Source: Bacilli bacterium
GTDB lineage: Bacteria > Bacillota_I > Bacilli_A > RF39 > UBA660
NCBI GenBank assembly: GCA_017541885.1
Contig: JAFXYF010000005.1
Location: 7,835-71,834 of the forward strand
Direction: 5' to 3'
DNA: 64,000 nt
Shown: positions 9,445 to 57,340 of the stretch, one piece after another
Numbering within the stretch: position 1 is the stretch's first letter
Layout of the letters: each line of letters opens with the position of its first letter
Program-made: the position numbers and the translations under genes
The notes under the pieces: model-generated
The model's database searches: none
Seen by the model: the letters and a program-made list of their open reading frames with translations, nothing else
Told to the model about the DNA's origin: nothing

Positions 9445-9636
9445 GTAATAAAAGACATAACTTTATGAGCTCTTATAACAGTGATTTAGGGATAGTGTGA
9501 ACCTAATTATAATCTTATATTGTTCCTACTTTTATGATGGATTTATCCCGGTGTATACACCGTTATCAAAAAAAGAGAAATTAAGGATGGTACCGTGCTT
9601 ATTGCACTCCTTTGGGTACCATCCTTTTTATTTTAG
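9445..9636 (+). promoter_or_regulatory. T-box riboswitch leader (proline specifier candidate)
   Basis: The conserved T-box sequence AAGGATGGTACCGTGC lies at 9583-9598. A terminator stem AAGGATGGTACC/GGGTACCATCCTT and T-run overlap it, which is the usual antiterminator/terminator alternative. An AGTGTGAA-type distal-loop element is present. The candidate specifier is CCT followed by a purine at 9525-9528. Confidence 0.8.
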
Positions 9637-9647
9637 GAGGTAGTAGT

Positions 9648-11321
9648 ATGAAATTAAGTAATAGTTATTTCTTTACAAAGAAAGAAGATGCAAAGGATGA
9701 AGAAGCAATAAGTGGAAACTTACTAGTTAGATCTGGAATGATCAAAAAGGCAGGTAGTGGAATTTATATTTTCTTACCTTTAGGATTAAAGGTACTTCGT
9801 AAGATTGAAAATATTGTTCGTGAAGAGATGAATAATATAGATTCACAGGAGTTAGTTATGCCGTCATTACTTCCTGAAGATTATTATATTGATAGTGGAA
9901 GACGTGATGTATTTGGTGATGATATGTTTTCATTACATGATAGAGCAGGAAGAAATTATGTTTTAGGTCCTACTCATGAGGAATTATTCGCAGATGTTTG
10001 TCGTGATGTAATTCAATCTTATAAAGATATGCCTATTAGTTTATATCAAATGGCTAATAAATATAGAGATGAAACTAGACCTAGATATGGATTAATAAGA
10101 ACTAGAGAATTTGTAATGAAAGATGCATATACTTTTGATAAAGATCTTGATGGATTAGATATTGCCTATAATAAAATGTTTGAGGCATATAAGAAAATAT
10201 TTGATCGTATTGGTCTTGATTATAAAATAGTTCGTGCTGCGACTGGTGCGATGGGAGGATTATTATCAGAAGAATTCCAAGCAATTACTGATATTGGTGA
10301 AGATATTGTTGTTACTTGTGAGTCTTGTGATTTAGCAACTAATATTGAGATATGTCCTTGTAGTAAAGAGACTGTTAGTGATGAAGAAGAGCTTGCAATT
10401 GAGGAGATTCATACTCCTAATTGTGGAACAATTGCTGATATTGAGAATAATTATCATATTCCTGCAGAGAAATTATGTAAGACTATGATTTATAAAGTTG
10501 ATGGTAAATTCTATGCATTTATGGTACGTGGAGATAGAGAAGTTAATGAATACAAGATATCTCAATTATTTGGTGGAAAAAATGTTGAGATGGCAACATT
10601 AGAAGAAGATGAAGAGGTTACTGGAGCTGCAGTTGGTTTTGCTGGACCTATAGGTTTATCTGTTCCAGTAATAATTGATACAGAGGTTTTAGGTATGAAG
10701 AACTTTGTTGTTGGTGCTAATAAAACTGATTATCACTTTACTAATGTTAATGTTAAAGATTTTAAATATGAGAATGTAGCAGATATCAGAAATGTATGTG
10801 AAGATGATGTTTGCCCTAACTGTGGAGGAAAACTAGTATTTAAACATGGTATTGAAGTTGGTAATACATTTAAATTAGGTACTAAATATTCTGAATCTAT
10901 GGGACTTTATTATGCAGATGAAAACAATGAATTAAAGCCTGTTTATATGGGATCTTATGGAATAGGCCCTGCAAGAATACTTGCTTCTGTTATTGAACAA
11001 AATCATGATGATAATGGTATTATATTCCCAGAGATTATTGCACCATTTGATTTAGAAATTGTAATTGTTGATATGAAGAATGAAGAACAAGTAAAAGTTG
11101 GATTTGAACTATATGAATATTTCACTAAAAAAGGATTAGATGTTTTACTTGATGATAGAGATATTCGTGCTGGAGGCAAGTTCAAAGATGCAGATTTAAT
11201 TGGTGTTCCAAAACGTATTGTAGTAGGTAGAGGAATTGCTGAAAATAAGGTTGAATTAAAGGATAGAAAAACTGGAGAATCTGCTGAAATTTCAATAGAA
11301 GAAATAAAGGAAACTTTTTAA
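9648..11321 (+). CDS. proS: prolyl-tRNA synthetase
   Basis: The N-terminus MKLSNSYFFTKKEDAKD is typical of ProS. Class II core motifs are present, along with a zinc-type CPNCGG element and an anticodon-binding C-terminus. The start is moved to the ATG at 9648 (AGGAGG RBS) because the track start at 9612 lies inside the T-box terminator. Confidence 0.95.
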   Translation: MKLSNSYFFTKKEDAKDEEAISGNLLVRSGMIKKAGSGIYIFLPLGLKVLRKIENIVREEMNNIDSQELVMPSLLPEDYYIDSGRRDVFGDDMFSLHDRAGRNYVLGPTHEELFADVCRDVIQSYKDMPISLYQMANKYRDETRPRYGLIRTREFVMKDAYTFDKDLDGLDIAYNKMFEAYKKIFDRIGLDYKIVRAATGAMGGLLSEEFQAITDIGEDIVVTCESCDLATNIEICPCSKETVSDEEELAIEEIHTPNCGTIADIENNYHIPAEKLCKTMIYKVDGKFYAFMVRGDREVNEYKISQLFGGKNVEMATLEEDEEVTGAAVGFAGPIGLSVPVIIDTEVLGMKNFVVGANKTDYHFTNVNVKDFKYENVADIRNVCEDDVCPNCGGKLVFKHGIEVGNTFKLGTKYSESMGLYYADENNELKPVYMGSYGIGPARILASVIEQNHDDNGIIFPEIIAPFDLEIVIVDMKNEEQVKVGFELYEYFTKKGLDVLLDDRDIRAGGKFKDADLIGVPKRIVVGRGIAENKVELKDRKTGESAEISIEEIKETF

Positions 11322-11332
11322 GTTTCCTTTTT
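11307..11332 (+). terminator. rho-independent terminator after proS
   Basis: Stem AAGGAAACT/AGTTTCCTT with a T-run. It overlaps the proS stop codon. Confidence 0.7.
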
Positions 11333-11340
11333 CATTTAAA

Positions 11341-11369
11341 TTGACTTTAATACCTATTTTCTATATAAT
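11341..11369 (+). promoter_or_regulatory. near-consensus sigma-A promoter in front of essC
   Basis: TTGACT (11341-11346), a 17-nt spacer, then TATAAT (11364-11369), about 25-30 nt upstream of the essC start. Confidence 0.6.
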
Positions 11370-11391
11370 AAAATAAGAGAATGGTAAAAGG

Positions 11392-14300
11392 GTGGTACTA
11401 GTGATTGTTTATATTTTTTATGACAATTTTTTTAGAAAAGTATTCCTTCCTGCTAGAGTAGTTGGAGTATACCCTGTTTATATAAATGAAAATCGTGTTC
11501 TCCTTAATATTGAAGCTGTTGATGGTAAATGGCATATTAAGGCTGCCGATTCTTTTTCTGTGCTTGTAAATGGTAATGAGGAAGAACATCCAGAATTGGA
11601 TATTAATAATACCTATATTATTCATAATGGAAATATTCATATATATGTTATTGCATCTTATATTTATTTTGTAGATAGTGCTAGATATAAAGCAAAAGTT
11701 AAAAACATTACATTCGGATCTAAAATTGGTAATTCTATTGTTTGTTCTAATAAATATGTTAAAGATTTAGAATATACTTTAGAGGAACAAGATGATGGAC
11801 AATGGACTATCGATGCTCAAGGGGATAATGTTTATTTAAATGATAAGCTTGTTAAAAAGGCTAATATTTTTACTGGAGATTATATCTTCTGTTTTGGTGT
11901 TAAGGTTATTTTCTTAGGAGGATATTTTATTGTTAATTCTCCTAATAATACTAAGATAGATACTGATGCTTTTGGTAGTGTTATTATTCAACCTGGTGTT
12001 GGTACTGAGAATAAGTATGAAGTACTTGATGATATGCCTTTATATGAGAAAAAGGATTATTTCTTTAAGGCTCCTAGATTTACTTCTGGTGGACAAGATA
12101 ATAGTGTAACAATTGAGTCTCCACCTATGTTTACTAAGCCAGAGGAAATGCCTGCAATACTTACAATTGGGCCTCAACTTACAATGGTTGCGATATCATT
12201 GTTCTCAATGCTAGATGTAATAATTGGCTTTATTAATGGTACAGTAGATGGTGCTAAATTCTTTTCTTCTTTAGTTATTGTTCTTGTTATGATTGTTGGT
12301 ACTGCTGGATGGCCAATGATTACTAGACTTTATAATAAGAGAAGAATTTCAAAAATTGAAAAGAAAAGAGATAAAAAATATAGAGCATATTTGGATGAAC
12401 AAGCTAATTATATTAAAACTTTAAAAGAGAATATTCGTAATAAATTACAAGAAGATTTTCCTTCTTTAGATAAGTGTCAGGCTATAATTGAACAAAGAAA
12501 AAATTCTTTATGGGCAAAAAATAATGATGATAGTGATTTCTTATATGCTTGTTTAGGCACCGGTACTATTAAATCTGGAATTAGTATTTCTGTTCCTTCT
12601 TCATCTTTTTCTTTAGATGGAGAGGATAAATTAATTACTGCTGCTAGAAGTGTAGGAGAGGAAGCTGTTTATATTGATAGTAGTCCTTTCCCATATTCAT
12701 TTACAACTAATAATATTACGGCATTATTAGGAGATAAAAAACTTGCTGATCGTTTACTTGATAATGTATTTTTACAATTTATGACTTCTCATTCTTATGC
12801 TGATGTAAAAATTGTTGTTATGACTACTCCTGAAAATGCTGCAAGATGGGATTATTTAAAAATACTTCCTCATTGTTGGAATAATCCTCATACTGTTCGT
12901 TATTTTGCAACTACTATTGAAGAGTTTAATGAATTATCTACTGAGTTAGATGCTATATTTGAGGCTCGTAGAACTGAATCTGATTTAGATATTCAAGATG
13001 ATGGTAGTGCTGATTCTGGAGCAGAACCTTATAGAAGACATAAACCTTATTATGTTATTTTTACTGATAATATCGATTCTATTAGAAATACTTCATTTAT
13101 AAAGAAAATATTGAATTATAAACGTAATTTAGGATTTACTTTATTAATTGAAAATGATTCTATTAGTACTTTGCCTGATCAAACACATGGATTTATTAGT
13201 GTTAATGATAAAGTATCTGGAGTATTTACTAATACATTAAGAATTGATGATAAAAATGAATTTAATTTGGATTTAGATACTTCATATGATATATATCATT
13301 GTGCACAAATACTTGCGAATACTCCTATACTTCTTGAGAAGGGTAAATATGAATTACCAAAATCATTATCTTTCTTGGAAATGTATAGAGTTGGTCGTGT
13401 AGAACAATTAAATTCACTAGATAGATGGAAAAATAATAATCCTACAAATAGTTTATCTGTACCTGTTGGAATTGATCAAAATGGTGAGATATTTAGAATG
13501 GATTTACATGAAAAAGTATATGGACCTCATGGACTTGTTGCAGGTACTACTGGTTCTGGTAAATCTGAATGGATTATTACATTTATTCTTTCTTTAGCAG
13601 TTAACTTTAACCCTGATGAAGTACAATTTGTACTTGTTGATTACAAGGGTGGTGGACTTGCAATGAGTTTTGAGAATAAAGAGCTTGGTATTAAGCTTCC
13701 TCATTTAGCTGGTACTATTACTAACCTTGATAAATCGGCTATTAATAGATCTATTGCATCTATTGAATCTGAATTAAAGAGAAGACAATCTATATTTAAT
13801 GCAGCTCGTGAGAAATTAAAAGAAGGACAAATGGATATTTATAAATATCAACAATTCTATAGAAAAGGAATGGTTGATACTCCAATGAGTCACTTATTTA
13901 TTATTTGTGATGAGTTTGCTGAGTTAAAACAACAACAACCTGAGTTTATGGATCAATTAATTTCTACTTCTAGAATTGGTCGTTCACTAGGTGTTCACTT
14001 AATTCTTGCTACTCAGAAACCTTCTGGAGTAGTTAATGATCAAATTTGGTCTAACTCTCGTTTTAAAGTATGTTTAAGAGTTCAAGATACAAGTGACTCT
14101 AATGAAATCTTAAAAAAACCAGATGCAGCATATTTAAAACAAGTTGGTGCATTCTATCTAGAAGTTGGTAATGATGAATACTATAACTTAGGACAATCTG
14201 CTTGGGCAGGAGCTAAGTATTATCCATCTGATATTGTTACTCGTTCTGTTGATCAATCTGTTCAGAGAATTGATGATACTGGTAGAATAGTTAACTATTT

Positions 14301-15978
14301 TGATAATGTAGATGAAAATAAAAAGAAAGCTGAAAATGCTCAAGGTGAAGAGTTATTAAATATAGTTAATTATGTTGATGCAATATCAAGGGGAGAGCAA
14401 TTTGTAAGACAACAATTATGGTTACCTAATATACCTCAAGATATTTATTTAGCTGAGATTAAGAAACGTTATAATTTCAAACCTCAAAAGATGAATTTTA
14501 CTACTGTTATTGGTGAATATGATGAACCTAGACAACAATTACAAAATATATTAACTATTGATTTAGCTGCAGGTAATATTGCAATTGTTGGACAACCTGG
14601 ATCTGGAAAAGAAATGTTACTTTCTACATTAATATTCTCTAGTGCAACAGAACATACTCCAAAAGAGATTAATTATTATATATTAGATTTTGGTGCTGAA
14701 ACTCTTAGAAAGTTTTCTAAATTTCCTCATGTTGGAGAAGTTGTATTCCAAGATGATATGGAGCGTGTTGGAGGAGTAATTCAACTTGTAATGGATGAGC
14801 TTAATAAACGTAAGGTTTTATTCCAAGATTATAATGGATCTTTAAAATACTATAATGAACATAGTGGTGAAACATTACCATTAATGTGTTTAGTTATTAA
14901 TGCTTTTGATGTATTTGGAGAAATACTAAGTAGAGTAGTAGATACTTTAAATAGTTTATTTAGAGATGCTCCTAGATATGGTATTATCTTTATACTAAGT
15001 GCATCTTCTCAAAATACTTTTAAGTCTAGAGTACTTCAATACTTTAATAAATTTATTGTATTAAATATGCAAGATGAGTCTCAATATCGTACTTTAACTA
15101 GTTGTCGTAAAGATTTAATTCCAAGTAATCTTTATGGTAGAGGTATTTGTAAGATTTATGATGATGATGATTCATATTCAGAATTCCAAACAGCTCATAT
15201 TATTGATCCAGATAAAGAACTTGCTTATTTAAAACAAGTTGCAGAAACTTTATCTAATGGATATTCTGTACGAGCTAAAAAGATTGCTACTATTCCAGAA
15301 AATGTTACTAGTGAAGATTTAGCTAAATATTTAACTACAGTAAATGATTTACCAATTGGATATAACTTCTATGAGAAAGATATTGCTAAAGTTGATTTAG
15401 GTAAGAGCAATGTTTATCCAATTATTACAAAAGACTTGAAAAACAACATTAAGTTTATTTATGGACTTGCTAATTTACTTACTAAGATTCCTAATACTGT
15501 TGTTAGAGTTATAGATGTGTTTAACATATTTGATAAGCCTATTCTTGATATTAAATTGTTTAATGATGATTTAAATGTAATATTTGCAGCATTAAATAAT
15601 GATGTTAAGGGTAGAAAAGAAACTCAACCATTAGCAATCAATATTATTATTGGTGCTGCTTCATTAAAGGGTAGACTTGATGCTACTGGAATGGAGTTTG
15701 CTAATAATATGTTTAATGGAATGATTAATTCTAAACAAAATATTTATATTTTAATTGATGAATACAGAAACTTTAAGTTATTGAAACTAGAGCCTTGGTA
15801 TAATACCATTGATACTTCTAATGGTATGTGGCTTGGTGAAGGACTTGATTCTCAATCTATTCTTCTTTCTAATGAGTTATCTCAAGAAGATAAGAAATAT
15901 AATTATGAAGGTATGGCATATCTTATTCAAGATGGAACTTACTCTTTAATTAAGACTATGATGGATGGTGATGATTAA
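11392..15978 (+). CDS. essC: type VII secretion FtsK/SpoIIIE-family ATPase EssC/YukB
   Basis: About 1525 aa. Two N-terminal FHA-like modules are followed by two TM helices and three P-loop domains (Walker A GTTGSGKSE and GQPGSGKE; the third is degenerate). A YukD-like gene follows directly. The start is GTG 11392 or GTG 11401; the AAAGGG RBS favours 11401. Confidence 0.9.
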   Translation: MVLVIVYIFYDNFFRKVFLPARVVGVYPVYINENRVLLNIEAVDGKWHIKAADSFSVLVNGNEEEHPELDINNTYIIHNGNIHIYVIASYIYFVDSARYKAKVKNITFGSKIGNSIVCSNKYVKDLEYTLEEQDDGQWTIDAQGDNVYLNDKLVKKANIFTGDYIFCFGVKVIFLGGYFIVNSPNNTKIDTDAFGSVIIQPGVGTENKYEVLDDMPLYEKKDYFFKAPRFTSGGQDNSVTIESPPMFTKPEEMPAILTIGPQLTMVAISLFSMLDVIIGFINGTVDGAKFFSSLVIVLVMIVGTAGWPMITRLYNKRRISKIEKKRDKKYRAYLDEQANYIKTLKENIRNKLQEDFPSLDKCQAIIEQRKNSLWAKNNDDSDFLYACLGTGTIKSGISISVPSSSFSLDGEDKLITAARSVGEEAVYIDSSPFPYSFTTNNITALLGDKKLADRLLDNVFLQFMTSHSYADVKIVVMTTPENAARWDYLKILPHCWNNPHTVRYFATTIEEFNELSTELDAIFEARRTESDLDIQDDGSADSGAEPYRRHKPYYVIFTDNIDSIRNTSFIKKILNYKRNLGFTLLIENDSISTLPDQTHGFISVNDKVSGVFTNTLRIDDKNEFNLDLDTSYDIYHCAQILANTPILLEKGKYELPKSLSFLEMYRVGRVEQLNSLDRWKNNNPTNSLSVPVGIDQNGEIFRMDLHEKVYGPHGLVAGTTGSGKSEWIITFILSLAVNFNPDEVQFVLVDYKGGGLAMSFENKELGIKLPHLAGTITNLDKSAINRSIASIESELKRRQSIFNAAREKLKEGQMDIYKYQQFYRKGMVDTPMSHLFIICDEFAELKQQQPEFMDQLISTSRIGRSLGVHLILATQKPSGVVNDQIWSNSRFKVCLRVQDTSDSNEILKKPDAAYLKQVGAFYLEVGNDEYYNLGQSAWAGAKYYPSDIVTRSVDQSVQRIDDTGRIVNYFDNVDENKKKAENAQGEELLNIVNYVDAISRGEQFVRQQLWLPNIPQDIYLAEIKKRYNFKPQKMNFTTVIGEYDEPRQQLQNILTIDLAAGNIAIVGQPGSGKEMLLSTLIFSSATEHTPKEINYYILDFGAETLRKFSKFPHVGEVVFQDDMERVGGVIQLVMDELNKRKVLFQDYNGSLKYYNEHSGETLPLMCLVINAFDVFGEILSRVVDTLNSLFRDAPRYGIIFILSASSQNTFKSRVLQYFNKFIVLNMQDESQYRTLTSCRKDLIPSNLYGRGICKIYDDDDSYSEFQTAHIIDPDKELAYLKQVAETLSNGYSVRAKKIATIPENVTSEDLAKYLTTVNDLPIGYNFYEKDIAKVDLGKSNVYPIITKDLKNNIKFIYGLANLLTKIPNTVVRVIDVFNIFDKPILDIKLFNDDLNVIFAALNNDVKGRKETQPLAINIIIGAASLKGRLDATGMEFANNMFNGMINSKQNIYILIDEYRNFKLLKLEPWYNTIDTSNGMWLGEGLDSQSILLSNELSQEDKKYNYEGMAYLIQDGTYSLIKTMMDGDD

Positions 15979-16232
15979 TGGATTACAAAGTATTAGTAAA
16001 ACTATTAGTACCTGAAATAGAAAAGTCTTATGAAATATATATTCCTATTAATCGTACTGTTAAAGATGTTTGTAGATTAGTTAATGAACTTGTTCACGAT
16101 GATACATCTGGAATATTTCCAATAAAAGACGATATAGTTCTTCTTGATAGATTTAGTACTGCAATATATCCTTATGATACTTATATAAGAGATACTAATA
16201 TTAGAAATGGTTCTCAAATAGTATTAATATAA
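15978..16232 (+). CDS. esaB: YukD/EsaB-like ubiquitin-fold T7SS accessory protein
   Basis: 84 aa. Its start overlaps the essC stop (TAATG). The C-terminus IRNGSQIVLI resembles YukD ITNGDRLEIL. Size and position match esaB/yukD. Confidence 0.75.
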   Translation: MDYKVLVKLLVPEIEKSYEIYIPINRTVKDVCRLVNELVHDDTSGIFPIKDDIVLLDRFSTAIYPYDTYIRDTNIRNGSQIVLI

Positions 16233-16235
16233 AAT

Positions 16236-16263
16236 AAAAACACCTCAATGAGGTGTTTTTTTT
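16236..16263. terminator. bidirectional rho-independent terminator
   Basis: AAAAACACCTC-AAT-GAGGTGTTTTT has an A-run and a T-run on either side. It lies between convergent genes. Confidence 0.85.
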
Positions 16264-17671
16264 ATCTTGTTCTTCCAATTCTAATTCCTGCTTCATTACA
16301 ATATGTATCAAAGTAGGCTTCCATATGAGCAACATCTAAATTATATTCTTCTGGTACATCATAAGTCATTCTATCTATGTATTCATCTCTTATCTTCTTT
16401 GCTGTATCATATGACATATTTGGATTAATTTTCTTTCTATAATACATCTTTGCTATATAGTCATATAAAGGGTAGAAATTCTTTTGTTCTACTTCCATAT
16501 TTTTATCATGATAGTCTTTATATTGAAGATTAATAAGGGCAAGCATTTCTATTGCTTTATCATCTCCATTTTGTTTATTAAGTTCATTTTCAAAATATGT
16601 TATATTATGTTCTACAAAATCTTGATAAGTATAATTATCTAGAGATTCTACCATCATTTCTACCATATTACTTTGTAATTGATATGCAATATCTCTTTCT
16701 GATTTATCATAAGATCTTAATGCTAGGAGAGAGTTTAGAGCTTCTTCTATTATTACTCCATCTCCTGATTTATCAGTGAATTGTACTCTTATTTCTTCTC
16801 CATTTTTCTTTATAAAACCACTTCTTATAGGGTGAGCCATTTCATGCATTATTACTTGATATTCCCATGTACCGGGTTCATATTTATAATCTTTAACAGT
16901 ATAAATAGTATTTTCATCTTTTCTATAACAAGCATATGCTGTAGCGCTTACAGCTTTTACTTTCATTTCCATTTCTTCTACTTCTAGAACTTTCATTGTC
17001 TTAAGATTTTCATACCATACTCTTAAATCCATGTTTGGGTATTCTCTTTGAAGATTATTTGCTAAATCAATATACATTGTTTTAAATTTCTTTGGAATAC
17101 TACTATTACTATTTATAGTTTCTTTTATTTTTTCATATGTAATATCTTCTTTTGGATATCCTAAAACTTCATCTAATCTACTACTATCAAGAACAATCTT
17201 CATATGGAAGCCTTCAATTAGACCTTCTACTTCAAAGTTTTCTTTTTTCTTATTTGCTTCTTCTAATATTTTGTCTACAACGTCTTCTTTGGCTTTTTCT
17301 TCTACTTTTTCTTCTGTCGTTGAAACACTATTTGTATATGGAGTTTGTACTGGCTCGTTTTGAGATATATGATTGTTGTATTCATTATCTAGCATTCTGC
17401 CACAACCAGTGGTCATCACAAATAAAGTAGTGCCAATAAAGATCATTGGTATTAGTTTTAATTTTTTCTTGTTTTTTCCTTCTTCAATTAATAAAACATA
17501 GTCTTTTGGAATAAATACATTTGTTAATTCTACTAATTCTTGAAGAGTTATATATTCTAACTTATTATTATCATTTTTTCTTACAAAGAAGTACTTGTGT
17601 TCATTATCAAGTAAATATAGATACTTTTTATCTTTATATGTGAATTCTGAAATAATATTGTATTCGATCAT
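16262..17671 (-). CDS. single-pass membrane protein with an extracytoplasmic HExxH (zincin-like) domain, uncharacterised
   Basis: About 469 aa. A roughly 75-aa N-terminal cytoplasmic module is followed by the hydrophobic segment LIPMIFIGTTLFVMTTGCG and a roughly 370-aa outer domain. That domain contains IMHEMAHP (HExxH) with EEALN about 30 residues later. I prefer the ATG at 17671 (AGGTGA RBS); the track starts at GTG 17680. Confidence 0.6.
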   Translation of the reverse strand: MIEYNIISEFTYKDKKYLYLLDNEHKYFFVRKNDNNKLEYITLQELVELTNVFIPKDYVLLIEEGKNKKKLKLIPMIFIGTTLFVMTTGCGRMLDNEYNNHISQNEPVQTPYTNSVSTTEEKVEEKAKEDVVDKILEEANKKKENFEVEGLIEGFHMKIVLDSSRLDEVLGYPKEDITYEKIKETINSNSSIPKKFKTMYIDLANNLQREYPNMDLRVWYENLKTMKVLEVEEMEMKVKAVSATAYACYRKDENTIYTVKDYKYEPGTWEYQVIMHEMAHPIRSGFIKKNGEEIRVQFTDKSGDGVIIEEALNSLLALRSYDKSERDIAYQLQSNMVEMMVESLDNYTYQDFVEHNITYFENELNKQNGDDKAIEMLALINLQYKDYHDKNMEVEQKNFYPLYDYIAKMYYRKKINPNMSYDTAKKIRDEYIDRMTYDVPEEYNLDVAHMEAYFDTYCNEAGIRIGRTR

Positions 17672-17826
17672 ATTAATCACCTATGTTTATTCTATCATAA
17701 TATGTAAACTTTATTTTTATTTTTGTAAAGTAATGTGTTAAGACTTGACACATAAATTTTAGTAGTGATATCGTTAAATTGTAATGATAAATTGTGTGTT
17801 AGCGTATAGGATAGGAGGGATTGGGA

Positions 17827-18177
17827 ATGCAGAACGAGGAAAATGTTAGTTTATGGATTAATGAAGAGAATCTTGGATCTTTTGCGATGAATTTGTTAAC
17901 CACATCAGAAGATGTATCTGAAATCTTCTCATCTATCGATAAAAAGATGGAAGCATTAAAACTCTGTTTTGATGGATCAGAATATGATCATTTGATGTCT
18001 AAGTATCGTGATTTTCGTAAGAATTATTCAGTTGCTAAAAACAATATTGTTTCTTATTCTGATGACTTAATTGCTCTTATTAATAAGGTTAGAGCTGGAG
18101 ATAAGAATATTGCATTTTTACTTGAGCAAATGACTAAATATGCTAACGAAAAAGCCAAAGAAATTGAAAATAAATAG
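17827..18177 (+). CDS. small helical WXG100-like protein (degenerate motif F-D-G)
   Basis: 116 aa, predicted all-helical. CFDGSEYD occupies the position of the hairpin turn. GGAGGG RBS. First gene of a six-gene array next to essC. Confidence 0.5.
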   Translation: MQNEENVSLWINEENLGSFAMNLLTTSEDVSEIFSSIDKKMEALKLCFDGSEYDHLMSKYRDFRKNYSVAKNNIVSYSDDLIALINKVRAGDKNIAFLLEQMTKYANEKAKEIENK

Positions 18178-18188
18178 GAGGTGTTTTG

Positions 18189-18500
18189 ATGGCTTTAGAT
18201 TTAGAACAATCAACAATTGGATACGACAGATCTGCTATGGAAAGAACATTACAAAATGTTCATAATGATTGTGTTTTACATGCACAAACAAAACTTAGAA
18301 ATAGTTTAAATAATCTAAGTGAAGATGTAAAAAAATGTTGGGCTGGACAATCAGCTAGAAACTTTATGCTTAATATGATTACTGATGTAGATCAAATCTG
18401 TAAAGGATTAGATGCTGCATACGATGGCCTTGAGGGAGAATTTAAGATGGTTTTATCTGGATTATCTCAAGTTGATCAAGAGCTAATCGAGAGACGATAG
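18189..18500 (+). CDS. WXG100-family (EsxA-like) protein
   Basis: 103 aa with a central W-x-G motif (KKCWAGQSARNF) between two helical halves. AGGAGGTG RBS. Confidence 0.8.
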   Translation: MALDLEQSTIGYDRSAMERTLQNVHNDCVLHAQTKLRNSLNNLSEDVKKCWAGQSARNFMLNMITDVDQICKGLDAAYDGLEGEFKMVLSGLSQVDQELIERR

Positions 18501-18512
18501 GAGGGAATAATA

Positions 18513-19100
18513 ATGAATGATGCTTTAGATACTGCAAAGGATATAGTTGCAGGTGCTAGTGATTTAGTTGGATCAGCAGTAGGAGGAGTTGCAGGTGCTG
18601 TTAACCAAACAGGAAAATCTGCAGTTAAAAATGGTATTTCTCCTTTCTTACAGTCTATTGGTGATGCTATTGGTGGATTTGGAGCTCAATTAAGTAATAA
18701 AGCTGCAGTAAATAGTAATAATAACCTTAGATTTCAAACTCAAGTTGGTGGATTTGTTGCTAATGTATTTGGTGATGATTTTGCCGGAGTTAGTAATTTT
18801 GAAGATTTAAAAGAGGCTATTTCTAAATATTCTCGTGAAGTTCAAGAAATTGTTAAAGAATATGATGAAAGAGCAAGACTTGATACTACTTTTAAAGGTA
18901 AAGCTGGAGAAGAATTACATACTTTCGTTGAAGCTACAAAAGAATTATTAAATGCTTATGTTAAATTAATTGAAAAATGGAATGAAGAACTTGATGATGC
19001 TTATGCAAGATATCAAGCTGGAGACGTTCAAATTCAACAAAATGTTCAAAGTGATGCTCAAGCAGTTCAACAAGCTGCACAAAACGTATCTCTTGGATAG
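18513..19100 (+). CDS. 195-aa protein with an N-terminal Gly/Ala-rich glycine-zipper segment and a C-terminal WXG100-like helical hairpin
   Basis: GxxxGxxxG occurs at G20/G24/G28 (LVGSAVGGVAGAV), followed by GDAIGGFGAQL. The C-terminal roughly 100 aa is helical with FKGKAGEE at the turn and a Gln-rich tail. GGAGGG RBS. Confidence 0.6.
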   Translation: MNDALDTAKDIVAGASDLVGSAVGGVAGAVNQTGKSAVKNGISPFLQSIGDAIGGFGAQLSNKAAVNSNNNLRFQTQVGGFVANVFGDDFAGVSNFEDLKEAISKYSREVQEIVKEYDERARLDTTFKGKAGEELHTFVEATKELLNAYVKLIEKWNEELDDAYARYQAGDVQIQQNVQSDAQAVQQAAQNVSLG

Positions 19101-19130
19101 TTAAAAAAATAATATATTGGAGGTGTCGCT

Positions 19131-19430
19131 ATGTCTGTTAACTCATGCTATGAGGCAATAGGTAGATATAATGCATTAAAAGTTAGTCTTTCAAATGTTG
19201 TAGGGCAACTTAATGCTGCTCATTCGAGAATATCTCCTGTACCTGGAGCAATTCTTTCTTCTTATAGTGTGAATGAAAATAAGACACCTATTGTTGGAAG
19301 AGTTGAAGCTCTTGATAAAGACATAGCGGACACAGCCAATTATATTTCTAAAACTGTGATACCTGCTATTGATAAAGCTATTTCTCAAAAGAGAAAAGAA
19401 ATGACTCAATTGCAACAGGAAGAGTCTTAG
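19131..19430 (+). CDS. small helical protein in the T7SS substrate array (hypothetical)
   Basis: 99 aa with a GGAGGTG RBS. No W-x-G; it has a Pro/Gly turn (SPVPGAIL) in the middle. Confidence 0.5.
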   Translation: MSVNSCYEAIGRYNALKVSLSNVVGQLNAAHSRISPVPGAILSSYSVNENKTPIVGRVEALDKDIADTANYISKTVIPAIDKAISQKRKEMTQLQQEES

Positions 19431-19440
19431 GAGGGGTATT

Positions 19441-19734
19441 ATGAAAGTTGATACTGTTGAGATGAAAAGTATTGCTGGTGAGATTAATCAATTAGCAGTA
19501 CAATATCAAACTAAGATTTCTCAAATGTATAATAAAATTGCACAGATGCCTACAGTTACAAAAGAGTGGACTGGAAATAAAGCACAAGAATATGTTTCAT
19601 ATGTAATGTTAGATAAAACTGATATGATGATTGTAGGAGATAGAATTAAGGACTTTGCTAGAGATATTATTGATACAGCAAATAGAATGGAAAGTTTTGA
19701 AACTACTGCAAGAGGAGATGAGACTGATGACTAA
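19441..19734 (+). CDS. WXG100-family protein
   Basis: 97 aa with a central W-x-G (TKEWTGNKAQEY). GGAGGGG RBS. Confidence 0.8.
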   Translation: MKVDTVEMKSIAGEINQLAVQYQTKISQMYNKIAQMPTVTKEWTGNKAQEYVSYVMLDKTDMMIVGDRIKDFARDIIDTANRMESFETTARGDETDD

Positions 19735-20038
19735 GATTATTTATCCTGAGTCTGATACTTTAACTTCTTTAGTACGTAATTCTATGAATGATACTTTGCA
19801 AAGTTTAAATAAAGCTCAAAGTTATTGTTCTTATTTAATTCCTAAAGATTTTCAATACCTAAATTATGTTAATAATTTAGGTGGAAAAATTGCTGGATTT
19901 AGTAATGAACTTAACAAGTGTTATAGTGCTTTAGGAAAAGTTGATAGAGATTATCAAAACACTTTATCATTAATTCATGAATCTTGTGAATTATTAGATA
20001 CGAGTACTATTCCAGAGAGAAGTAGACTTATAAAGTAG
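19727..20038 (+). CDS. small helical protein in the T7SS substrate array (hypothetical)
   Basis: 103 aa counted from ATG 19727, which overlaps the stop of the previous gene (ATGACTAA). The track start at 19655 would overlap the upstream CDS by 80 nt. A terminator follows. Confidence 0.5.
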   Translation: MTKIIYPESDTLTSLVRNSMNDTLQSLNKAQSYCSYLIPKDFQYLNYVNNLGGKIAGFSNELNKCYSALGKVDRDYQNTLSLIHESCELLDTSTIPERSRLIK

Positions 20039-20065
20039 AGATACAGGTTATGTATCTTTTTTTAT
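20039..20065 (+). terminator. rho-independent terminator of the WXG operon
   Basis: Stem AGATAC/GTATCT followed by a T-run. Confidence 0.7.
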
Positions 20066-20118
20066 TGCATTTAAAAGGCTTTTATGATATCATATTGGTG
20101 TTGTTATGGAGGGATTTT

Positions 20119-20334
20119 ATGCAAATTGCTTTATTAATTATATCAATCTTATTAATAATTATTGTATTATTACAAGGTGCTAAATCTGATGCAGGTCCTC
20201 AAATTATTTCAGGTGGTCAAAGCGAATTATTTATGAATCGTAAAGAAAGAGGATCAGAATTAGTTATTACAAGAATAACTATGACTTTAGGATTTGCTTT
20301 CTTTGTATTGTGTTTAATATCAATGTTTATTTAA
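20119..20334 (+). CDS. secG: preprotein translocase subunit SecG
   Basis: 71 aa (MQIALLIISILLIIIVLLQGAKSDAG...), a typical SecG. GGAGGG RBS before ATG 20119. The conserved neighbourhood secG-rnr-smpB supports the call. Confidence 0.85.
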   Translation: MQIALLIISILLIIIVLLQGAKSDAGPQIISGGQSELFMNRKERGSELVITRITMTLGFAFFVLCLISMFI

Positions 20335-20356
20335 GGACTTCGGTCCTTTTTCTTTT
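20333..20356 (+). terminator. rho-independent terminator after secG
   Basis: AAGGAC-TTCG-GTCCTT followed by a T-run. Confidence 0.75.
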
Positions 20357-20416
20357 GCAAAAAGGACTAGTTTATAGTTTAAAAATAAAGTATAATAATA
20401 TAGAGGGTGTGATACT

Positions 20417-22525
20417 ATGAGAGATACCATTATGAATATATTAAAAAATGCTGATAAAGCTCTTGATATCTATGAATTACAAGATCGTTTAGGTATTAGT
20501 ACTGTAGAAGAGACTACTGAATTAATGAATGAACTTAAAAAATTAGAAAATGAAGTTGTAGTTTATCATTCTAATAAAGATAAATATATGTTAATTGAAG
20601 ATAGTCATTTGAAAAAAGGTATTATGAGAGCTAATAAGAGAGGCTTTGGATTTGTAGAAGTTCAAGGGTTAGAAGAAGATATTTATATTTCTCAGGATAA
20701 TATGAATGGAGCTATTCATGATGATGTCGTATTAGTAGAGATAACTAGTAAGATGAATTTAGATAGACTTGAGGGTAGAGTACTTCGTATCTTAGAGAGA
20801 AAGATGACTAATTTTATTGGTCTTATTACTTTTGATGAAAAAGGTGTAGGACATATTGAATTAGATGATAATAAGATTAAACTTAATATTGAAATACCTA
20901 AGGGTAAAGCAATGAATGCTGTTGATGGGCATAAAGTTGTAGTAAGACTTATGAAGAAAATGAATTCTTCTGGTAGATATGAAGGAAAAGTAATAGATAT
21001 TTTAGGACATAAAAATGATCCTGGAGTAGATATTTTATCTATTATATATAAGTACAATATTAATACTGATTACTCAGAGGATGTTAAAAGAGAAGTTAGA
21101 CAATTACCTATGGAAGTATCAGAAGAAGAGATGAAAGATAGAAGAGATTTAAGAGAAGAAGTAATCTTTACTATCGATGGAGATGATACTAAGGATATTG
21201 ATGATGCGATTAGTATTAAGATTTTAAATAATGGTCATTATCAATTAGGTGTTCATATAGCTGATGTTAGTTATTATGTTAGAGAAGGTACTGCATTAGA
21301 TGAAGAGGCAATGGATAGAGGAACTAGTGTTTACTTAGTAGATAGAGTTATTCCTATGCTTCCTCATGAATTATCTAATGGTATTTGTTCTTTGAATCCT
21401 AATGTGGATAGATTAGCTATTTCTTGTGTAATGGAATTTGATGGTGCTGGTAAACAAATAGATTATGAAATATTCCCTAGCGTTATTAGATCTAGAATTC
21501 AAATGACATATAAGAAAGTTAATAGTATTTTAGAAAAGAATGAGATACCTGAGGGATATGAGCCTTATGTTAATCATTTAAAATTAATGGAAGAGTTAGC
21601 TGAAATACTTAGAAAAGCTAAGGTAAAGAGAGGCTACATTGATTTTAATATCGATGAAGCTAAGATTCTTGTTGATGAGAATTGTGTACCTACTGATGTG
21701 GTTCTTAGAGATAGAGGTGCTGGAGAAAAGCTAATTGAAGACTTTATGATTGCAGCTAATGAGTGTGTTGCATCTCATATTTATTTCATGAATTTACCTT
21801 TTATATATCGTATTCATGAAACTCCAGAAGAAGATAAAATTCGTAGTTTCTTAGGATTTGTTAGTGGATTAGGATATCATGTTGATGGAGATTTAAGAGA
21901 TTTAAGACCTAAAGCTGTTCAAGGTATAGTTGATCAATTAATTGATAAACCTGAATATAAGATTCTTTCTACTTTACTTCTTAGAAGTATGAAGAAAGCT
22001 GTTTATAGTCCTGAAAATTTAGGACATTATGGTTTAGCAAGTGACTGTTATACACACTTTACTTCACCAATTAGACGTTATCCAGATACTACTGTTCATA
22101 GATTACTTCGTACTTATTTATTTGATGGTCATGCAGATATGCCTACAGTACGTAAGTGGGAAGAGAAGCTTGTATATATTGCAGATCATTCAAGTGAGAG
22201 AGAAAGAGCATCAATTGACTGTGAACGAGAAGTAGAAGATATGAAGATGGCTGAATATATGGAACAACATATTGGAGAAGAGTTTGAAGGTATGATTTCA
22301 TCTGTTACAAGTTTTGGTATGTTTGTAGAACTTCCTAATTTAATTGAGGGATTAGTTCCTTTAAGAGATATGGATGATTTCTATCATTTTGATGAAGAGC
22401 ATTTAACTTTAACTGGAGAAAAAACACATACAAGATATGTTATTGGAGAGAAAGTTATTGTTAAAGTTGTTAGAGCTAGTAAGGATGAGAAAACGATTGA
22501 TTTTGAAATAGTAAGAAAGGTTTAA
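20417..22525 (+). CDS. rnr: ribonuclease R
   Basis: 702 aa. N-terminal winged-helix/OB domains, an RNB domain (TIDGDDTKDIDDAIS, HFTSPIRRYPD) and a C-terminal S1 domain. Confidence 0.93.
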   Translation: MRDTIMNILKNADKALDIYELQDRLGISTVEETTELMNELKKLENEVVVYHSNKDKYMLIEDSHLKKGIMRANKRGFGFVEVQGLEEDIYISQDNMNGAIHDDVVLVEITSKMNLDRLEGRVLRILERKMTNFIGLITFDEKGVGHIELDDNKIKLNIEIPKGKAMNAVDGHKVVVRLMKKMNSSGRYEGKVIDILGHKNDPGVDILSIIYKYNINTDYSEDVKREVRQLPMEVSEEEMKDRRDLREEVIFTIDGDDTKDIDDAISIKILNNGHYQLGVHIADVSYYVREGTALDEEAMDRGTSVYLVDRVIPMLPHELSNGICSLNPNVDRLAISCVMEFDGAGKQIDYEIFPSVIRSRIQMTYKKVNSILEKNEIPEGYEPYVNHLKLMEELAEILRKAKVKRGYIDFNIDEAKILVDENCVPTDVVLRDRGAGEKLIEDFMIAANECVASHIYFMNLPFIYRIHETPEEDKIRSFLGFVSGLGYHVDGDLRDLRPKAVQGIVDQLIDKPEYKILSTLLLRSMKKAVYSPENLGHYGLASDCYTHFTSPIRRYPDTTVHRLLRTYLFDGHADMPTVRKWEEKLVYIADHSSERERASIDCEREVEDMKMAEYMEQHIGEEFEGMISSVTSFGMFVELPNLIEGLVPLRDMDDFYHFDEEHLTLTGEKTHTRYVIGEKVIVKVVRASKDEKTIDFEIVRKV

Positions 22526-29784: not shown

Positions 29785-32004
29785 ATGATGAGAAGTTATG
29801 TTGATTTAGTTTTAAAAAAAGAGAAGAAAGCTATTTCTTTAGAATTGATTGTTTCTAAGATAGAACAATTAAGAAATAGTAAATTAACTGAAGAAGAGAT
29901 AAAAGAAGTATTAGATACATTAGAAGAAGATGTATCTAATTTAGATGTATTAAAAACTCCTACTAATGAATATATTTTGCTTACTAAAACGTCTTTTAGA
30001 AAAGGACGTTTTTATAGTGATAAAAATGGAGGAGTTGTTTCTGTTACTAACTCTTATATTGATAGAGATGGTAAATTAATTGTTAGTAGTGAAGAGTTTA
30101 ATGTAGATAAAGAATATACTTTTGGAGCAATTGATGGAGATTATGTATTAATTGATAGTTCTAGTGGTAATACTAAAGTTAGTAAAATACTTGATAGACA
30201 GTTAGAGTATATTGCTGGTGAAGTATATAGAACTGGTGAAAGTTATTTTGTTAGACCAGTTGACTCTAAAAAACAATTTCTTACTATTGCTTTAGAGGGA
30301 GAAGCTATTGAAGGGGAAAGAGTGGAAGTTGTTTTAAATAAACAGACTGCTCCTAATTTCTATCATGGAACTATTACTAAGGTTTTTAATCATAAGGATG
30401 ATCCTACTGAGGCAATTCTTTGGGAAGCTTTTAAGCATGGAGTAGATAATGAATTTAGTAGAGAAGCTTTAGAACAACTTGAACATATTCCTACTGAGGT
30501 TAGAGACTCTGATCGTATTGGTAGAGAAGATTTAACTCATTGGGAAGTATTTACTATTGATGGTAAGGATACTAAAGATATGGATGATGCGATTAGTCTT
30601 ACTATAAACGAAAGAGGTAATTATGTTTTAGGAGTTCATATTACTGATATAGCATCTATTGTACCTGAAGGATCTCCTCTTGATAGAGAAGCTTTTAGAA
30701 AAGGTAATAGTTTCTATTTAGGTGGTACCGTTCTTCCAATGTTTCCACATAAGATATCTAATGGTATTGGTTCATTAAATCCTTATGTAGACCGTATGAC
30801 TATTTCTTGTATTATGGAGATTTCTCCTGAAGGAGAGGTATTATCTCATAGAATTAGTCCTACTATTATTAGATCTAGAAAAAAGATGACTTATGAGAGT
30901 GTTAATAAATTATTAAAGAAAGGTGAAGTTGAAGAAGGATACGAAGAGTTTTCTGAAACTTTATTAAGAATGTATAAATTAAGTTTGATACTTAAAAAGA
31001 ATCGTATTTTAGATGGAGCAACTGACTTTAATAGAGGAGAATTAAAAGAGAAGAGAGATGAATCAGGTAAGATAATTGGATTTGGTAGTAGAATACAAGA
31101 TGCAGCAGAAAACTTAATAGAAGAATTTATGGTTTTAGCTAATCAAGAGGTAGATAAAGATTTAACTTCTAAGGGATTTCCTTTCTTACATAGAGTTCAT
31201 GGATATCCTAATGAAGCAAGACTTGAAAATCTATTAAGATTATTAGATGCAGTAGGATTACCTTTTGCGGAATACTCAGCAACTGATCTTGCTTATGATC
31301 ATAAAGCTTATCAAAAACTAATTAGTCATATTAATAGAAGTGGTCCATTAAGAGATGTGTTACTTACTGAAGCTATTAGATGTATGTCTAGAGCTAAATA
31401 TAGTCATGAATCTATTGGTCATTATGGATTAGCTAAGAGATATTATTGTCATTTTACTTCTCCTGTTAGAAGAGATGCTGATTTAACTGATCAAAGAATT
31501 ATATGGGATTTCTTATTTAAACGTGATAATATTGAAAAGAATGTCCATAAGTGGGCTAAAAAATTACCTGAGATTGCAGAGAGAACTTCTAAACAAGAGC
31601 GAATTGCGAATGATACAGAAAAAGATGTTTTAAAAATGATTTGCGCAGAATATATGGAAGAGCATGTTGGAGAAGAATTTGATGCGACTATAACTGAACT
31701 TTCTTCTAATGGTTTAGTTGTTCAACTAGATAACTTAATGGAAGGTAATGTACGTATGAGAGATTTAGGTGGACATTATGTTTATAGTGAGAAAAATTAT
31801 GCATTAATTTCTAAAGATGGAGAAGAACCTTACTTTTTAGGAGAAAGATTACATCTTATGTTAAAACATGCTTCTAGAGATGCGAAGAAAATAGATTTTT
31901 GTGTTATTGATAAAATATATGATAGTAATGTTAGATATCGAGAGGATATTTATAACGATGTAAAAATGAAAATGAAAAAGAGAAGAGCAAAAAGAAAAAA
32001 ATAA
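29785..32004 (+). CDS. RNase II/R-family (RNB domain) exoribonuclease, second paralog
   Basis: 739 aa. RNB motifs TIDGKDTKDMDDAIS and HFTSPVRRDADL, a C-terminal S1-like domain and a Lys-rich tail (KMKMKKRRAKRKK). Confidence 0.85.
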   Translation: MMRSYVDLVLKKEKKAISLELIVSKIEQLRNSKLTEEEIKEVLDTLEEDVSNLDVLKTPTNEYILLTKTSFRKGRFYSDKNGGVVSVTNSYIDRDGKLIVSSEEFNVDKEYTFGAIDGDYVLIDSSSGNTKVSKILDRQLEYIAGEVYRTGESYFVRPVDSKKQFLTIALEGEAIEGERVEVVLNKQTAPNFYHGTITKVFNHKDDPTEAILWEAFKHGVDNEFSREALEQLEHIPTEVRDSDRIGREDLTHWEVFTIDGKDTKDMDDAISLTINERGNYVLGVHITDIASIVPEGSPLDREAFRKGNSFYLGGTVLPMFPHKISNGIGSLNPYVDRMTISCIMEISPEGEVLSHRISPTIIRSRKKMTYESVNKLLKKGEVEEGYEEFSETLLRMYKLSLILKKNRILDGATDFNRGELKEKRDESGKIIGFGSRIQDAAENLIEEFMVLANQEVDKDLTSKGFPFLHRVHGYPNEARLENLLRLLDAVGLPFAEYSATDLAYDHKAYQKLISHINRSGPLRDVLLTEAIRCMSRAKYSHESIGHYGLAKRYYCHFTSPVRRDADLTDQRIIWDFLFKRDNIEKNVHKWAKKLPEIAERTSKQERIANDTEKDVLKMICAEYMEEHVGEEFDATITELSSNGLVVQLDNLMEGNVRMRDLGGHYVYSEKNYALISKDGEEPYFLGERLHLMLKHASRDAKKIDFCVIDKIYDSNVRYREDIYNDVKMKMKKRRAKRKK

Positions 32005-37137: not shown

Positions 37138-37150
37138 TTATGACTCTTTT
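37125..37150. terminator. bidirectional terminator between ctpA and the sortase gene
   Basis: Palindrome AAAAGAGTCA-TAATTA-TGACTCTTTT. Confidence 0.75.
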
Positions 37151-37671
37151 TCTATGGCATTTATAAGCAATTGACAATTATCTTTTTTAGGACAGCAAGT
37201 AGTAAGTACTAGTTGTCTTTTATTTTCTTTTACTCCAGAGATATAACCTGTTTTTGGTTGTTCTTCTATTTTATTAATTACATATTTATAATCATTATTT
37301 TGATATGTGATTATTACTTCATCTTTTAATTCTAATTCGTCTAATCTGTTAAAGAATGAAACATTACTTGTCCCTGAATGAGCAGCAATAAAAATAATAC
37401 TATTTTCTTCTTTTGGATCAATAGATTCTTTTAGAATAGTTATATTTTCTTCAATATTATTTTTATTACTTTCTATAGAATATAAATCTTTATTTAAAGC
37501 TATCTTTTCTATTACTATTTTTCCTATTGGTTTTTCTTCTATTATATTTTCTTTAAATACTTTATTAATATGAATAGTATTTATTTCTTCTTCTTTATCT
37601 ATTTTTAAGAGAGATAATGAAGAGAGTAGAGTTATTACTATTACTAGAATTCTAAAGGTATTTTTTAGCAT
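37138..37671 (-). CDS. small sortase-family transpeptidase (atypical)
   Basis: 177 aa with an N-terminal TM anchor, AAHSG (catalytic His region) and QLVLTTC (TLxTC-type Cys). No Arg occurs in the 18 residues after the Cys. The start overlaps the stop of the upstream adhesin gene. Confidence 0.7.
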   Translation of the reverse strand: MLKNTFRILVIVITLLSSLSLLKIDKEEEINTIHINKVFKENIIEEKPIGKIVIEKIALNKDLYSIESNKNNIEENITILKESIDPKEENSIIFIAAHSGTSNVSFFNRLDELELKDEVIITYQNNDYKYVINKIEEQPKTGYISGVKENKRQLVLTTCCPKKDNCQLLINAIEKES

Positions 37672-51622: not shown

Positions 51623-51696
51623 AAAGAGATATTTAATATCTCTTTTTTTTGTTTAATAATATGATATAATTTGTATAGAATAGGAGTGTGACCAAT
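51619..51696 (+). repeat. copy 2 of the duplicated terminator-promoter-RBS cassette
   Basis: The same hairpin occurs at 51621-51647, followed by TTAATAATATGATATAAT and AGGAG. Confidence 0.85.
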
Positions 51697-54230: not shown

Positions 54231-54269
54231 TTTATTATTTAGAAATTGTGTTATAATACTTATATATTT

Positions 54270-57288: not shown

Positions 57289-57340
57289 ACTTTTTCCTTA
57301 CTTTATGGTATAATGTGCGTACTAATGGGGGTTGGTAGTT

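Follow-up and report, generated by a model that had tools for sequence, protein, structure and literature searches.

A type VII secretion system (T7SS) of the T7SSb type comprises YukE-YukD-YukC-YukB-YueB-YueC in B. subtilis and EsxA-EsaA-EssA-EsaB-EssB-EssC in S. aureus. Within it, YukD has a role in the assembly of YukB, and the FHA region of EssC binds the YukC pseudokinase (PMC12637312). Eight further subtypes, T7SSc to T7SSj, were described from RefSeq genomes, and all of them are devoid of EssB, EsaA, and EssA (Garrett, Higginson and Palmer 2024, PMC11217815). T7SSc genomes that were checked contained no additional T7SSa or T7SSb orthologues. The extra components of T7SSc-j differ by subtype and include kinases, phosphatases, vWA, EspG-like, and AAA+ proteins, Ig-like giants, and a beta-propeller; no metallopeptidase component is mentioned for these subtypes, and a fixed array of six genes for helical proteins occurs in none of them (PMC11217815). 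The locus described here lies in a 64-kb stretch of DNA from a Bacilli bacterium (contig JAFXYF010000005.1, positions 7,835 to 71,834), referred to as the window, whose GC content is about 29%. It encodes an EssC ATPase, a ubiquitin-like protein of 84 residues (p84), a membrane protein with an HExxH motif (p472), and six small helical proteins (p118, p104, p195, p99, p97, and p127). This locus probably constitutes a self-contained T7SS of a subtype beyond the a-j scheme, present in uncultured low-GC Bacilli that come mostly from gut metagenomes.

The components that define a T7SS in general (Pallen 2002; the core TsxA, TsxB, and TsxC of Garrett et al. 2024) are all found in the window: an EssC-type ATPase, WXG100 proteins encoded beside it, and a small ubiquitin-like protein. 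The locus resembles T7SSb in several respects. Both have an EssC/YukB ATPase with two transmembrane helices and three P-loop domains (and an N-terminus that in the window EssC is putatively FHA-like), a free-standing ubiquitin-like protein adjoining essC, and WXG100 proteins of about 100 residues. There are also differences. No EssB/YukC pseudokinase, EsaA/YueB, or EssA/YueC was detected at the locus, which has two WXG100 proteins and four other conserved helical proteins, whereas T7SSb has one core EsxA. In addition, the locus contains an HExxH membrane protein that has no counterpart in T7SSb, and it carries no LXG toxin/immunity genes. A preliminary description, made from the letters of the window, had named the locus a reduced T7SSb-like locus. 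A T7SS-like locus without the partner genes is indeed present, but the framing is outdated; since EssB, EsaA, and EssA are missing from every one of T7SSc-j, a locus without them is not anomalous on that account.

A comparison with T7SSc-j brings the locus closest to the simple T7SSg (TsgA1, A2, B, C, and L) and the FHA-bearing T7SSf. With all of T7SSc-j it shares the TsxA, TsxB, and TsxC core, the lack of EssB, EsaA, and EssA, and a small number of subtype-specific extras. Two WXG100 proteins are likewise found in T7SSe and T7SSg. In contrast to T7SSc-j, however, the locus has no TsxD kinase, TsxF PPM phosphatase, vWA protein TscE, EspG-like chaperone TsxG, DUF6382-FHA protein, Ig-like giant TsxI, TsgL beta-propeller, or AAA+/TadZ protein TsfV. 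Pkinase, PP2C, vWA, DUF6382, Big_13, DUF5050, and AAA_31 matched no protein of the locus; that such detection works is demonstrated by a related locus of T7SSe/j type (L017), which shows kinase, Ig-like giant, DUF6382-FHA, AAA_31, YukD, and WXG100 genes. The subtype-specific TsxH, TsxI, TsxJ, TsxK, TshM, and TsiN were likewise not found among the locus proteins. TsgC is devoid of FHA domains, unlike the putatively FHA-bearing EssC of the window, and the T7SSc-j survey was restricted to RefSeq, whereas the window's clade is known from metagenome-assembled genomes (MAGs) alone. As far as sequence comparison can tell, the composition of the locus matches no published subtype from a to j, because the T7SSc-j components are absent from it and neither a metallopeptidase nor a six-gene helical array occurs in those subtypes; this particular composition is what is new. 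Within the literature library that was searched, no paper links EssC to a metalloprotease component, and none describes a T7SS for these lineages or for Saccharibacteria genomes.

Evidence that these genes form a unit comes from comparing the window with its relatives. Ten loci carry the module (the window, L001-L005, L007-L009, and L015), and at all ten EssC, p84, and all six small protein families occur in fixed order. Their surroundings differ: proS/secG, ABC transporters, metG, nusG/secE, priA/fmt, and a ribosomal operon flank the module in one locus or another. The three closest loci (L001-L003, EssC 66-75% identical) share the entire arrangement of the window, including proS and secG. 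In these three, a GNAT acetyltransferase gene that is absent from the window lies between the YukD-like gene and p472 (L003:5066-5578, − strand). Four others (L005, L007, L008, and L009, EssC 53-54%) were found through p472 homologues of 33-42% identity and lie in four unrelated neighborhoods; there p472 is divergent and upstream of essC-p84-p118-p104-p195-p99-p97-p127.

The two remaining loci are more distant and are devoid of p472. One (L004) is a 214-kb contig, JAZSOA010000012.1, of a Candidatus Nanosyncoccaceae (Saccharimonadota) MAG, with an EssC of 43% identity, p84, and the six small families. Here the module is part of an island of about 11 kb (L004:5200-15900) with 39-41% GC, located between rpsH and rplF in a ribosomal-protein operon of about 50% GC. 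The same island also encodes two GT2 glycosyltransferases, a 194-residue acidic protein, and a 313-residue Pro/Gln-rich protein with a single transmembrane segment. No literature report of a Patescibacteria-encoded T7SS was found. The other (L015, EssC 39% identical, 25% GC) likewise carries p84, with the six families in their usual order. Two EssC outgroups of 28-29% identity, L016 and L017, have other arrangements. The L016 locus (10001-18595) consists of EssC (28%), a Pfam YukD protein, a 97-residue protein, four WXG100 proteins, a 226-residue protein whose N-terminal part includes a hydrophobic segment, and a Mbeg1-like/DUF6792 protein of 475 residues, with no further membrane component nearby.

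The preliminary description had proposed a survey of relatives for co-occurrence of essC-yukD, the HExxH gene, and the array. In this survey, ten loci carry the remainder of the module, and p472 is present in 8/8 loci belonging to the window's clade (EssC identity of 52% or more), where it is the constant partner of the module. Its orientation varies: in four loci the gene follows p84 in convergent orientation, whereas in the other four it lies upstream of essC and is divergent, and in both gene orders p472 and a module operon share a short divergent promoter region. A p472-like protein is also encoded divergently to a 30%-identical EssC in L010, from a 61% GC organism. From the closest to the more distant loci, identity to the window falls from 46-58% to 33-42% for p472 and from 66-75% to 53-54% for EssC. 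All nine open reading frames are intact at every locus examined. The ratio of nonsynonymous to synonymous substitution (dN/dS) between L001 and L002 is 0.11-0.21 for every module gene, with 0.04-0.09 for eno, rnr, and proS, and all module genes are under purifying selection. The module genes thus co-occur and co-diverge, with conserved folds and motifs, and the locus is a maintained, portable, conserved module rather than a decayed T7SSb.

p472 (16262-17680, − strand) is a single-pass membrane protein of 472 residues, or 469 if counted from the start at 17671 in the NCBI record. A convergent gene for a 469-residue membrane protein between p84 and the six-gene array had been described before, and the gene is there, with one transmembrane segment and the motif VIMHEMAH. 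In the protein, a single transmembrane helix connects a conserved cytoplasmic N-domain of about 55-70 residues to an extracytoplasmic domain of about 340 residues. Within the latter, H278, E279, H282, and E312 are invariant across 32 diverse sequences with identities down to 34%, the last Glu lying 30 residues downstream of the motif. The AlphaFold2 model (pLDDT 81.8) is good across the ectodomain and places E312 at the opening of a helix spanning residues 308-323. An invariant HExxH with a Glu 30 residues on is what p472 has in common with gluzincins such as the M9 collagenases, M34 anthrax lethal factor, M13 neprilysin/PepO, and PF18818 proteins, and on this basis its ectodomain is a putative gluzincin-type zinc peptidase. 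In contrast to these enzymes, p472 matches no peptidase family significantly in sequence or structure, and it has no match to a Pfam model or a PDB sequence. A Foldseek search returned no significant structural neighbor; the best match was collagenase H (E 0.029), with TM-scores of at most 0.2, yet nearly all of the weak top matches are HExxH...E gluzincins (collagenases G and H, anthrax lethal factor, neprilysin/PepO, and AM0627). PF18818 (zincin-like) is matched at the motif by only two long, distant members of the p472 family, whose members are annotated only as hypothetical proteins.

Two other identities for p472 were tried and rejected. A hidden EssB or EsaA has neither sequence nor fold support, the model being unlike EssB/YukC structures. 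The window copy contains a ...TTGC sequence reminiscent of a lipoprotein, but the orthologues have no Cys there and conserve the N-domain of about 70 residues before the transmembrane segment.

EssC, or TsxC (11401-15978, + strand), is a membrane ATPase of FtsK/SpoIIIE type. Its reading frame was called at 11392-15978; because all orthologues open with MIVY and a ribosome-binding site, AAAGGGTGG, precedes the GTG at 11401, the start was moved to this codon, giving 1525 residues. The protein scores 928 bits against TIGR03928, the curated EssC model (cut-off 778), and among proteins of solved structure B. subtilis YukB is the closest to it (E 4.8e-115). EssC contains two hydrophobic segments within approximately residues 252-300 and Walker A boxes GTTGSGKSE in the first ATPase domain (D1) and GQPGSGKE in the second (D2), while the third (D3) has no P-loop. 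The earlier account of EssC, with its length, two transmembrane helices, Walker boxes in D1 and D2, and degenerate D3, holds in every particular. Across 13 related EssCs, Walker A and B of D1 are invariant, D2 keeps its P-loop and is devoid of the Walker B acidic pair, and D3 is degenerate. D1 is presumably the sole catalytically complete ATPase domain of EssC.

The FHA-like N-terminus proposed for EssC is a more nuanced matter. When the N-termini of nine orthologues are combined into a profile, only FHA proteins and the FHA domain of a Geobacillus EssC come out at the top, with weak E-values of 0.03-0.3, and the window EssC itself has no Pfam FHA match. EssCs of the clade at 37-50% identity, however, carry precomputed Pfam FHA matches (PF00498 or PF16697), so that the support for the window protein is weak and indirect.

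The gene for p84 (15978-16232, + strand) is joined to essC by a stop-start overlap, TAATG, which confirms the translational coupling noticed earlier. Its identification as YukD/EsaB-like could be upheld only by indirect means. p84 has no direct match to Pfam YukD, nor is there any Pfam match among 50 database relatives, and its profile found no ubiquitin-like or YukD chain among PDB sequences. The AlphaFold2 model (pLDDT 94.3), on the other hand, has a beta-grasp ubiquitin-like fold whose matches include the ubiquitin-like domain of EccD from a T7SSa (7np7_D, TMq 0.78), and the hidden Markov model (HMM) of the p84 family matches the PF08817-annotated YukD of L016 with an E-value of 3.3e-9. Because of this fold and this family match, p84 is a divergent YukD/EsaB (TsxB) homologue.

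The six small genes are tightly packed on the + strand, and the two W-x-G motifs reported in them (CWAGQSA and EWTGNKA) are present as described. p104 (18186-18500) is a divergent WXG100 protein with an invariant W52-x-G54 and a conserved C-terminal tail, DQxLVKxR; five of its nine orthologues match Pfam WXG100 (PF06013) at E ≤ 0.01, and EsxA structures are matched at E 0.16-0.34. The second, p97 (19441-19734), has an invariant E42-W43-x-G45. Its WXG100 score is 25.0 bits (cut-off 27.3), three of nine orthologues match PF06013 at E ≤ 0.01, and its HMM matches an L016 protein that Pfam assigns to WXG100 (E 4e-4). WXG100 is the only Pfam family that recurs among the orthologues of p104 and p97, and these two are the only pair that profile-profile comparison aligned in register at the W-x-G (E 0.022, probability 2%).

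The other four share the helical character of the array. p118 (17821-18177), without W-x-G and with a conserved YSDDL motif, shows sub-threshold Pfam matches to DUF7249 and WXG100 and reaches EsxA (3zbh) at E 0.022. It is paralogous to the C-terminal domain of p195, as the HMM cross-matches show (E 1e-5 to 1e-7). p195 (18513-19100) joins a Gly/Ala-rich N-terminal region to a C-terminal helical domain like DUF6507 (25.8 bits, cut-off 25), LXG, and WXG100, the last two below threshold; its orthologues share a conserved GGFAG motif. The Gly/Ala region of the window copy (18513-18780) is about 40 residues longer than in the nine orthologues, so that the protein has 195 residues against 152-156. 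p99 (19131-19430), likewise small, helical, and conserved but without a family assignment, has an orthologue in this position at each of the ten module loci. p127 (19727-20038) overlaps the end of p97 by 8 nucleotides and has a conserved C-terminal R-x-R-L-I-K; the orthologues place its start at 19727 rather than 19655, for a true length of about 103 residues. Its matches are an ESAT-6-like structure (12fa, E 5.9e-4) and S. aureus EsxA (E 0.04). For p84, p472, p99, and p127, direct scans with Pfam and NCBIfam yielded no informative match, and the profiles of p97 and p195 retrieved only coiled-coil noise from the PDB. None of the six small proteins, including p195, has a transmembrane segment, and the only such segments within the module are those of EssC and p472.

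The search for the missing T7SSb components covered the 64-kb window, with Pfam and NCBIfam profiles (PF10140 or TIGR03926 for YukC/EssB), and 10 kb around the matches in relatives, through their precomputed Pfam annotation. YukC/EssB, EssA, and EsaA/YueB matched none of the approximately 40 window proteins, and none of these partners was found within 10 kb in the five Pfam-annotated relatives (L005, L007-L009, and L015). Thus, the earlier statement that EssB, EsaA, and EssA are lacking from the window is borne out, and no reading frame of the locus matches those families. Among the EssC matches, YukD, WXG100, kinase, and FHA were detected as positive controls; these matches include no canonical YukC-bearing T7SSb locus and hence no positive control for YukC detection.

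These components suggest a model for the machine, drawn largely by analogy. EssC would oligomerize in the membrane as both channel and motor, with the degenerate D3 acting as substrate receptor. p84 would bind the cytoplasmic domains of EssC and stabilize the assembly, as is proposed for YukB and YukD. p104 and p97 would form the core WXG100 pair and be exported, while p118, p195, p99, and p127 may be co-secreted partners or targeting factors, the Gly/Ala-rich N-terminus of p195 serving as a short cargo region. p472 may take the structural place held by EssB/YukC in T7SSb or by EccB-MycP in T7SSa, a suggestion modeled on the cryo-EM arrangement of YukB, YukC, and YukD (PMC12637312). Its cytoplasmic domain would contact the FHA region of EssC, and its zinc-peptidase-like domain outside the cell could process substrates or open the wall. 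The mycosin MycP of T7SSa would offer a parallel: this protease is anchored in the membrane, has its catalytic domain on the outer side, is encoded as a conserved part of its T7SS locus, and caps the periplasmic face of ESX (PMC12637312, PMC11217815). MycP, however, is a serine protease of the subtilisin-like kind and is anchored at its C-terminus, whereas p472 has a zincin-type HExxH...E motif, an N-terminal anchor, and a cytoplasmic N-domain. The two have no sequence or fold relationship, and the analogy would be functional only.

Several observations weigh against a self-contained system of this kind. Peptidase activity, secretion, and protein contacts are inferred only. The WXG100 and YukD assignments in the window fall below the curated Pfam thresholds and rest on family-level evidence, the profile-profile comparison among the small families is weak, and p472 has no significant structural neighbor. 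The lack of essB, esaA, and essA holds for the window and the 10-kb flanks only. Finally, p472 is missing from the modules of L004 and L015 and is therefore not universally required, a remote p472 relative (L012) lies away from any essC, and one EssC (L014, 36% identical, 10001-14539) is solitary, away from partner genes. In L014, essC has priA-fmt on one side and tmk-folA-thyA on the other, and none of the genes within 10 kb is of the YukD-like, WXG, or p472 kind; priA-fmt also lies upstream in L015, where the small genes are nevertheless kept.

The absence of p472 from some modules lends substance to the view that p472 is not part of the machine. It would then be a co-located, perhaps co-regulated extracellular metallopeptidase with a role of its own, such as nutrient or wall turnover or product processing, and the apparatus would consist of EssC and the YukD-like protein alone. 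L004 and L015 indeed keep EssC, p84, and the six small genes without it, and in the window it is encoded on the opposite strand. Furthermore, the ectodomain family is wide: a deep profile search gave 625 clusters, many without the cytoplasmic N-domain, and the L012 member is not near essC. This explanation is possible, though on the unlikely side, for it must account for linkage in all eight clade loci across two gene orders with a shared divergent promoter region, for the recurrence of the pairing in a high-GC organism whose EssC is 30% identical, and for the joint drop of p472 and EssC identity across loci. A conserved cytoplasmic N-domain, moreover, has no obvious use in a free-standing exoprotease. 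Of the explanations offered in the preliminary description, the one in which uncharacterized proteins such as p472 replace the missing parts is the best supported for this clade, given the 8/8 loci, the two orientations, and the 30%-identical EssC.

A different division of labor would need no p472 at all. For its membrane machinery the system may need no more than EssC and the YukD-like protein, with the six helical proteins forming a fixed hetero-oligomeric extracellular conduit or tip across the wall in place of EsaA and EssB. Such a minimal cassette would be portable enough for horizontal transfer to have given a Saccharibacteria (CPR) episymbiont a working T7SS. The preliminary description had likewise raised the idea of a minimal EssC-only apparatus. 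This idea fits L004 and L015, which lack p472; the conduit reading as a whole is distinctly unlikely.

The locus could instead be part of a split operon, an ordinary T7SSb whose EssB/YukC, EsaA/YueB, and EssA/YueC are encoded elsewhere in the genome, which was another of the explanations in the preliminary description. EssC is of T7SSb type by the TIGR03928 model and by its best solved relative, YukB; it has a putative FHA-like N-terminus, the region that in T7SSb binds the YukC pseudokinase (PMC12637312); and the EssC of L014 is separated from other T7SS genes. Against this, the same gene set recurs in at least six neighborhoods and in a Saccharibacteria contig, never with YukC, EssA, or EsaA in the stretches compared. 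The nearest EssC outgroups recovered are non-b variants (L017 of e/j type, and L016), and eight published subtypes do without the partner genes. In characterized T7SSb loci, the partner genes lie beside essC. Such a split is therefore very doubtful.

In EssC/EccC proteins, the D2 and D3 sites are commonly degenerate. That the locus is an inactive, decaying T7SSb remnant, as the absent canonical partners, the degenerate D3, and a D2 without the Walker B acidic pair might suggest, is hardly credible for nine reading frames that are intact in all loci at dN/dS 0.11-0.21, with D1 Walker A and B invariant in 13 EssCs, a strong promoter-like site, and translational coupling.

Candidate control signals of the module can be traced in the window. 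A promoter-like site, TTGACT-17-TATAAT (11341-11369, + strand), lies 5' of essC and just 3' of the proS terminator (11306-11330). It matches 11 of 12 consensus positions and is the only site to do so in 11200-20400, which makes the near-consensus essC promoter of the preliminary description the best-scoring site in the region. The total of promoter-like sites in this interval is not above chance, and the essC site is a consensus match only. Another such match (10/12), TTGACA-18-TATCGT with a TG (17745-17774, + strand), falls within the 140 bp from which p472 and the array are divergently oriented. A bidirectional hairpin resembling an intrinsic terminator (16236-16260), with an 11-bp stem and T-runs on both strands, separates p84 from the convergent p472.

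The locus is flanked by proS (9612-11321) on one side and by secG, rnr, a CapA-like gene, smpB, and the transfer-messenger RNA gene on the other; the order secG-rnr-smpB-ssrA given earlier names genes that are there but omits the CapA-like gene between rnr and smpB. In the interval 20038-20368, no terminator separates the last small gene (end 20038) from secG, and the first terminator-like hairpin 3' of the array lies after secG (20342-20368). A weak promoter-like site is present at 19941-19970. Since there is no terminator 5' of secG, this gene may be co-transcribed with the six-gene array in the window's sub-clade. The linkage of secG as a feature of the module was rejected, as the locus comparison confines this synteny to that sub-clade.

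The remainder of the window encodes two copies of FemAB, MurD, a sortase, VanY, and NlpC/P60. Because of these peptidoglycan-wall genes, a wall-less lifestyle was rejected as the reason for the absence of EsaA and the other partners. The sortase gene adjoins that of a 467-residue protein with SpaA prealbumin-like and thioester (TED) domains (37138-39068, − strand), and the two are probably a sortase-dependent adhesin or pilin pair. Two tandem paralogues of 837 residues each (49109-51622 and 51688-54201, + strand) have a hydrophobic N-terminal segment and no Pfam or NCBIfam family; the EsaA profile does not match either. Also present are two RNB-domain exoribonuclease genes of RNase R/II type less than 10 kb apart (20417-22525 and 29785-32004, + strand), a Fic-domain protein (57332-58504, + strand), and a T-box leader (54265-54450, + strand) 5' of a 129-residue membrane reading frame, which itself runs into the beginning of the gene for a class I aminoacyl-tRNA synthetase.

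The passage of substrates across membrane and wall in the T7SS of Firmicutes is unsettled, and the sole structural model of the T7SSb core relies on YukC/EssB. A natural T7SSb-like EssC bearing an FHA region and paired with a YukD-like protein, yet without YukC, would show which contacts are dispensable. In the module described here, the place of YukC would be taken by a single-pass zinc-peptidase-like protein that is not related to it, or by nothing conserved, and the nine-gene cassette is small enough for reconstitution. If the proposed reading is true, the locus would be an eleventh composition in the a-j scheme, from uncultured gut Bacilli invisible to a RefSeq-based survey, and p472 would be the second membrane-anchored protease built into a T7SS locus, after the mycosin of ESX. 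One copy lies within a ribosomal operon of Saccharibacteria, which suggests that Patescibacteria are among the bacteria reached by T7SS modules, where, if so, they would be relevant to the interaction between epibiont and host.

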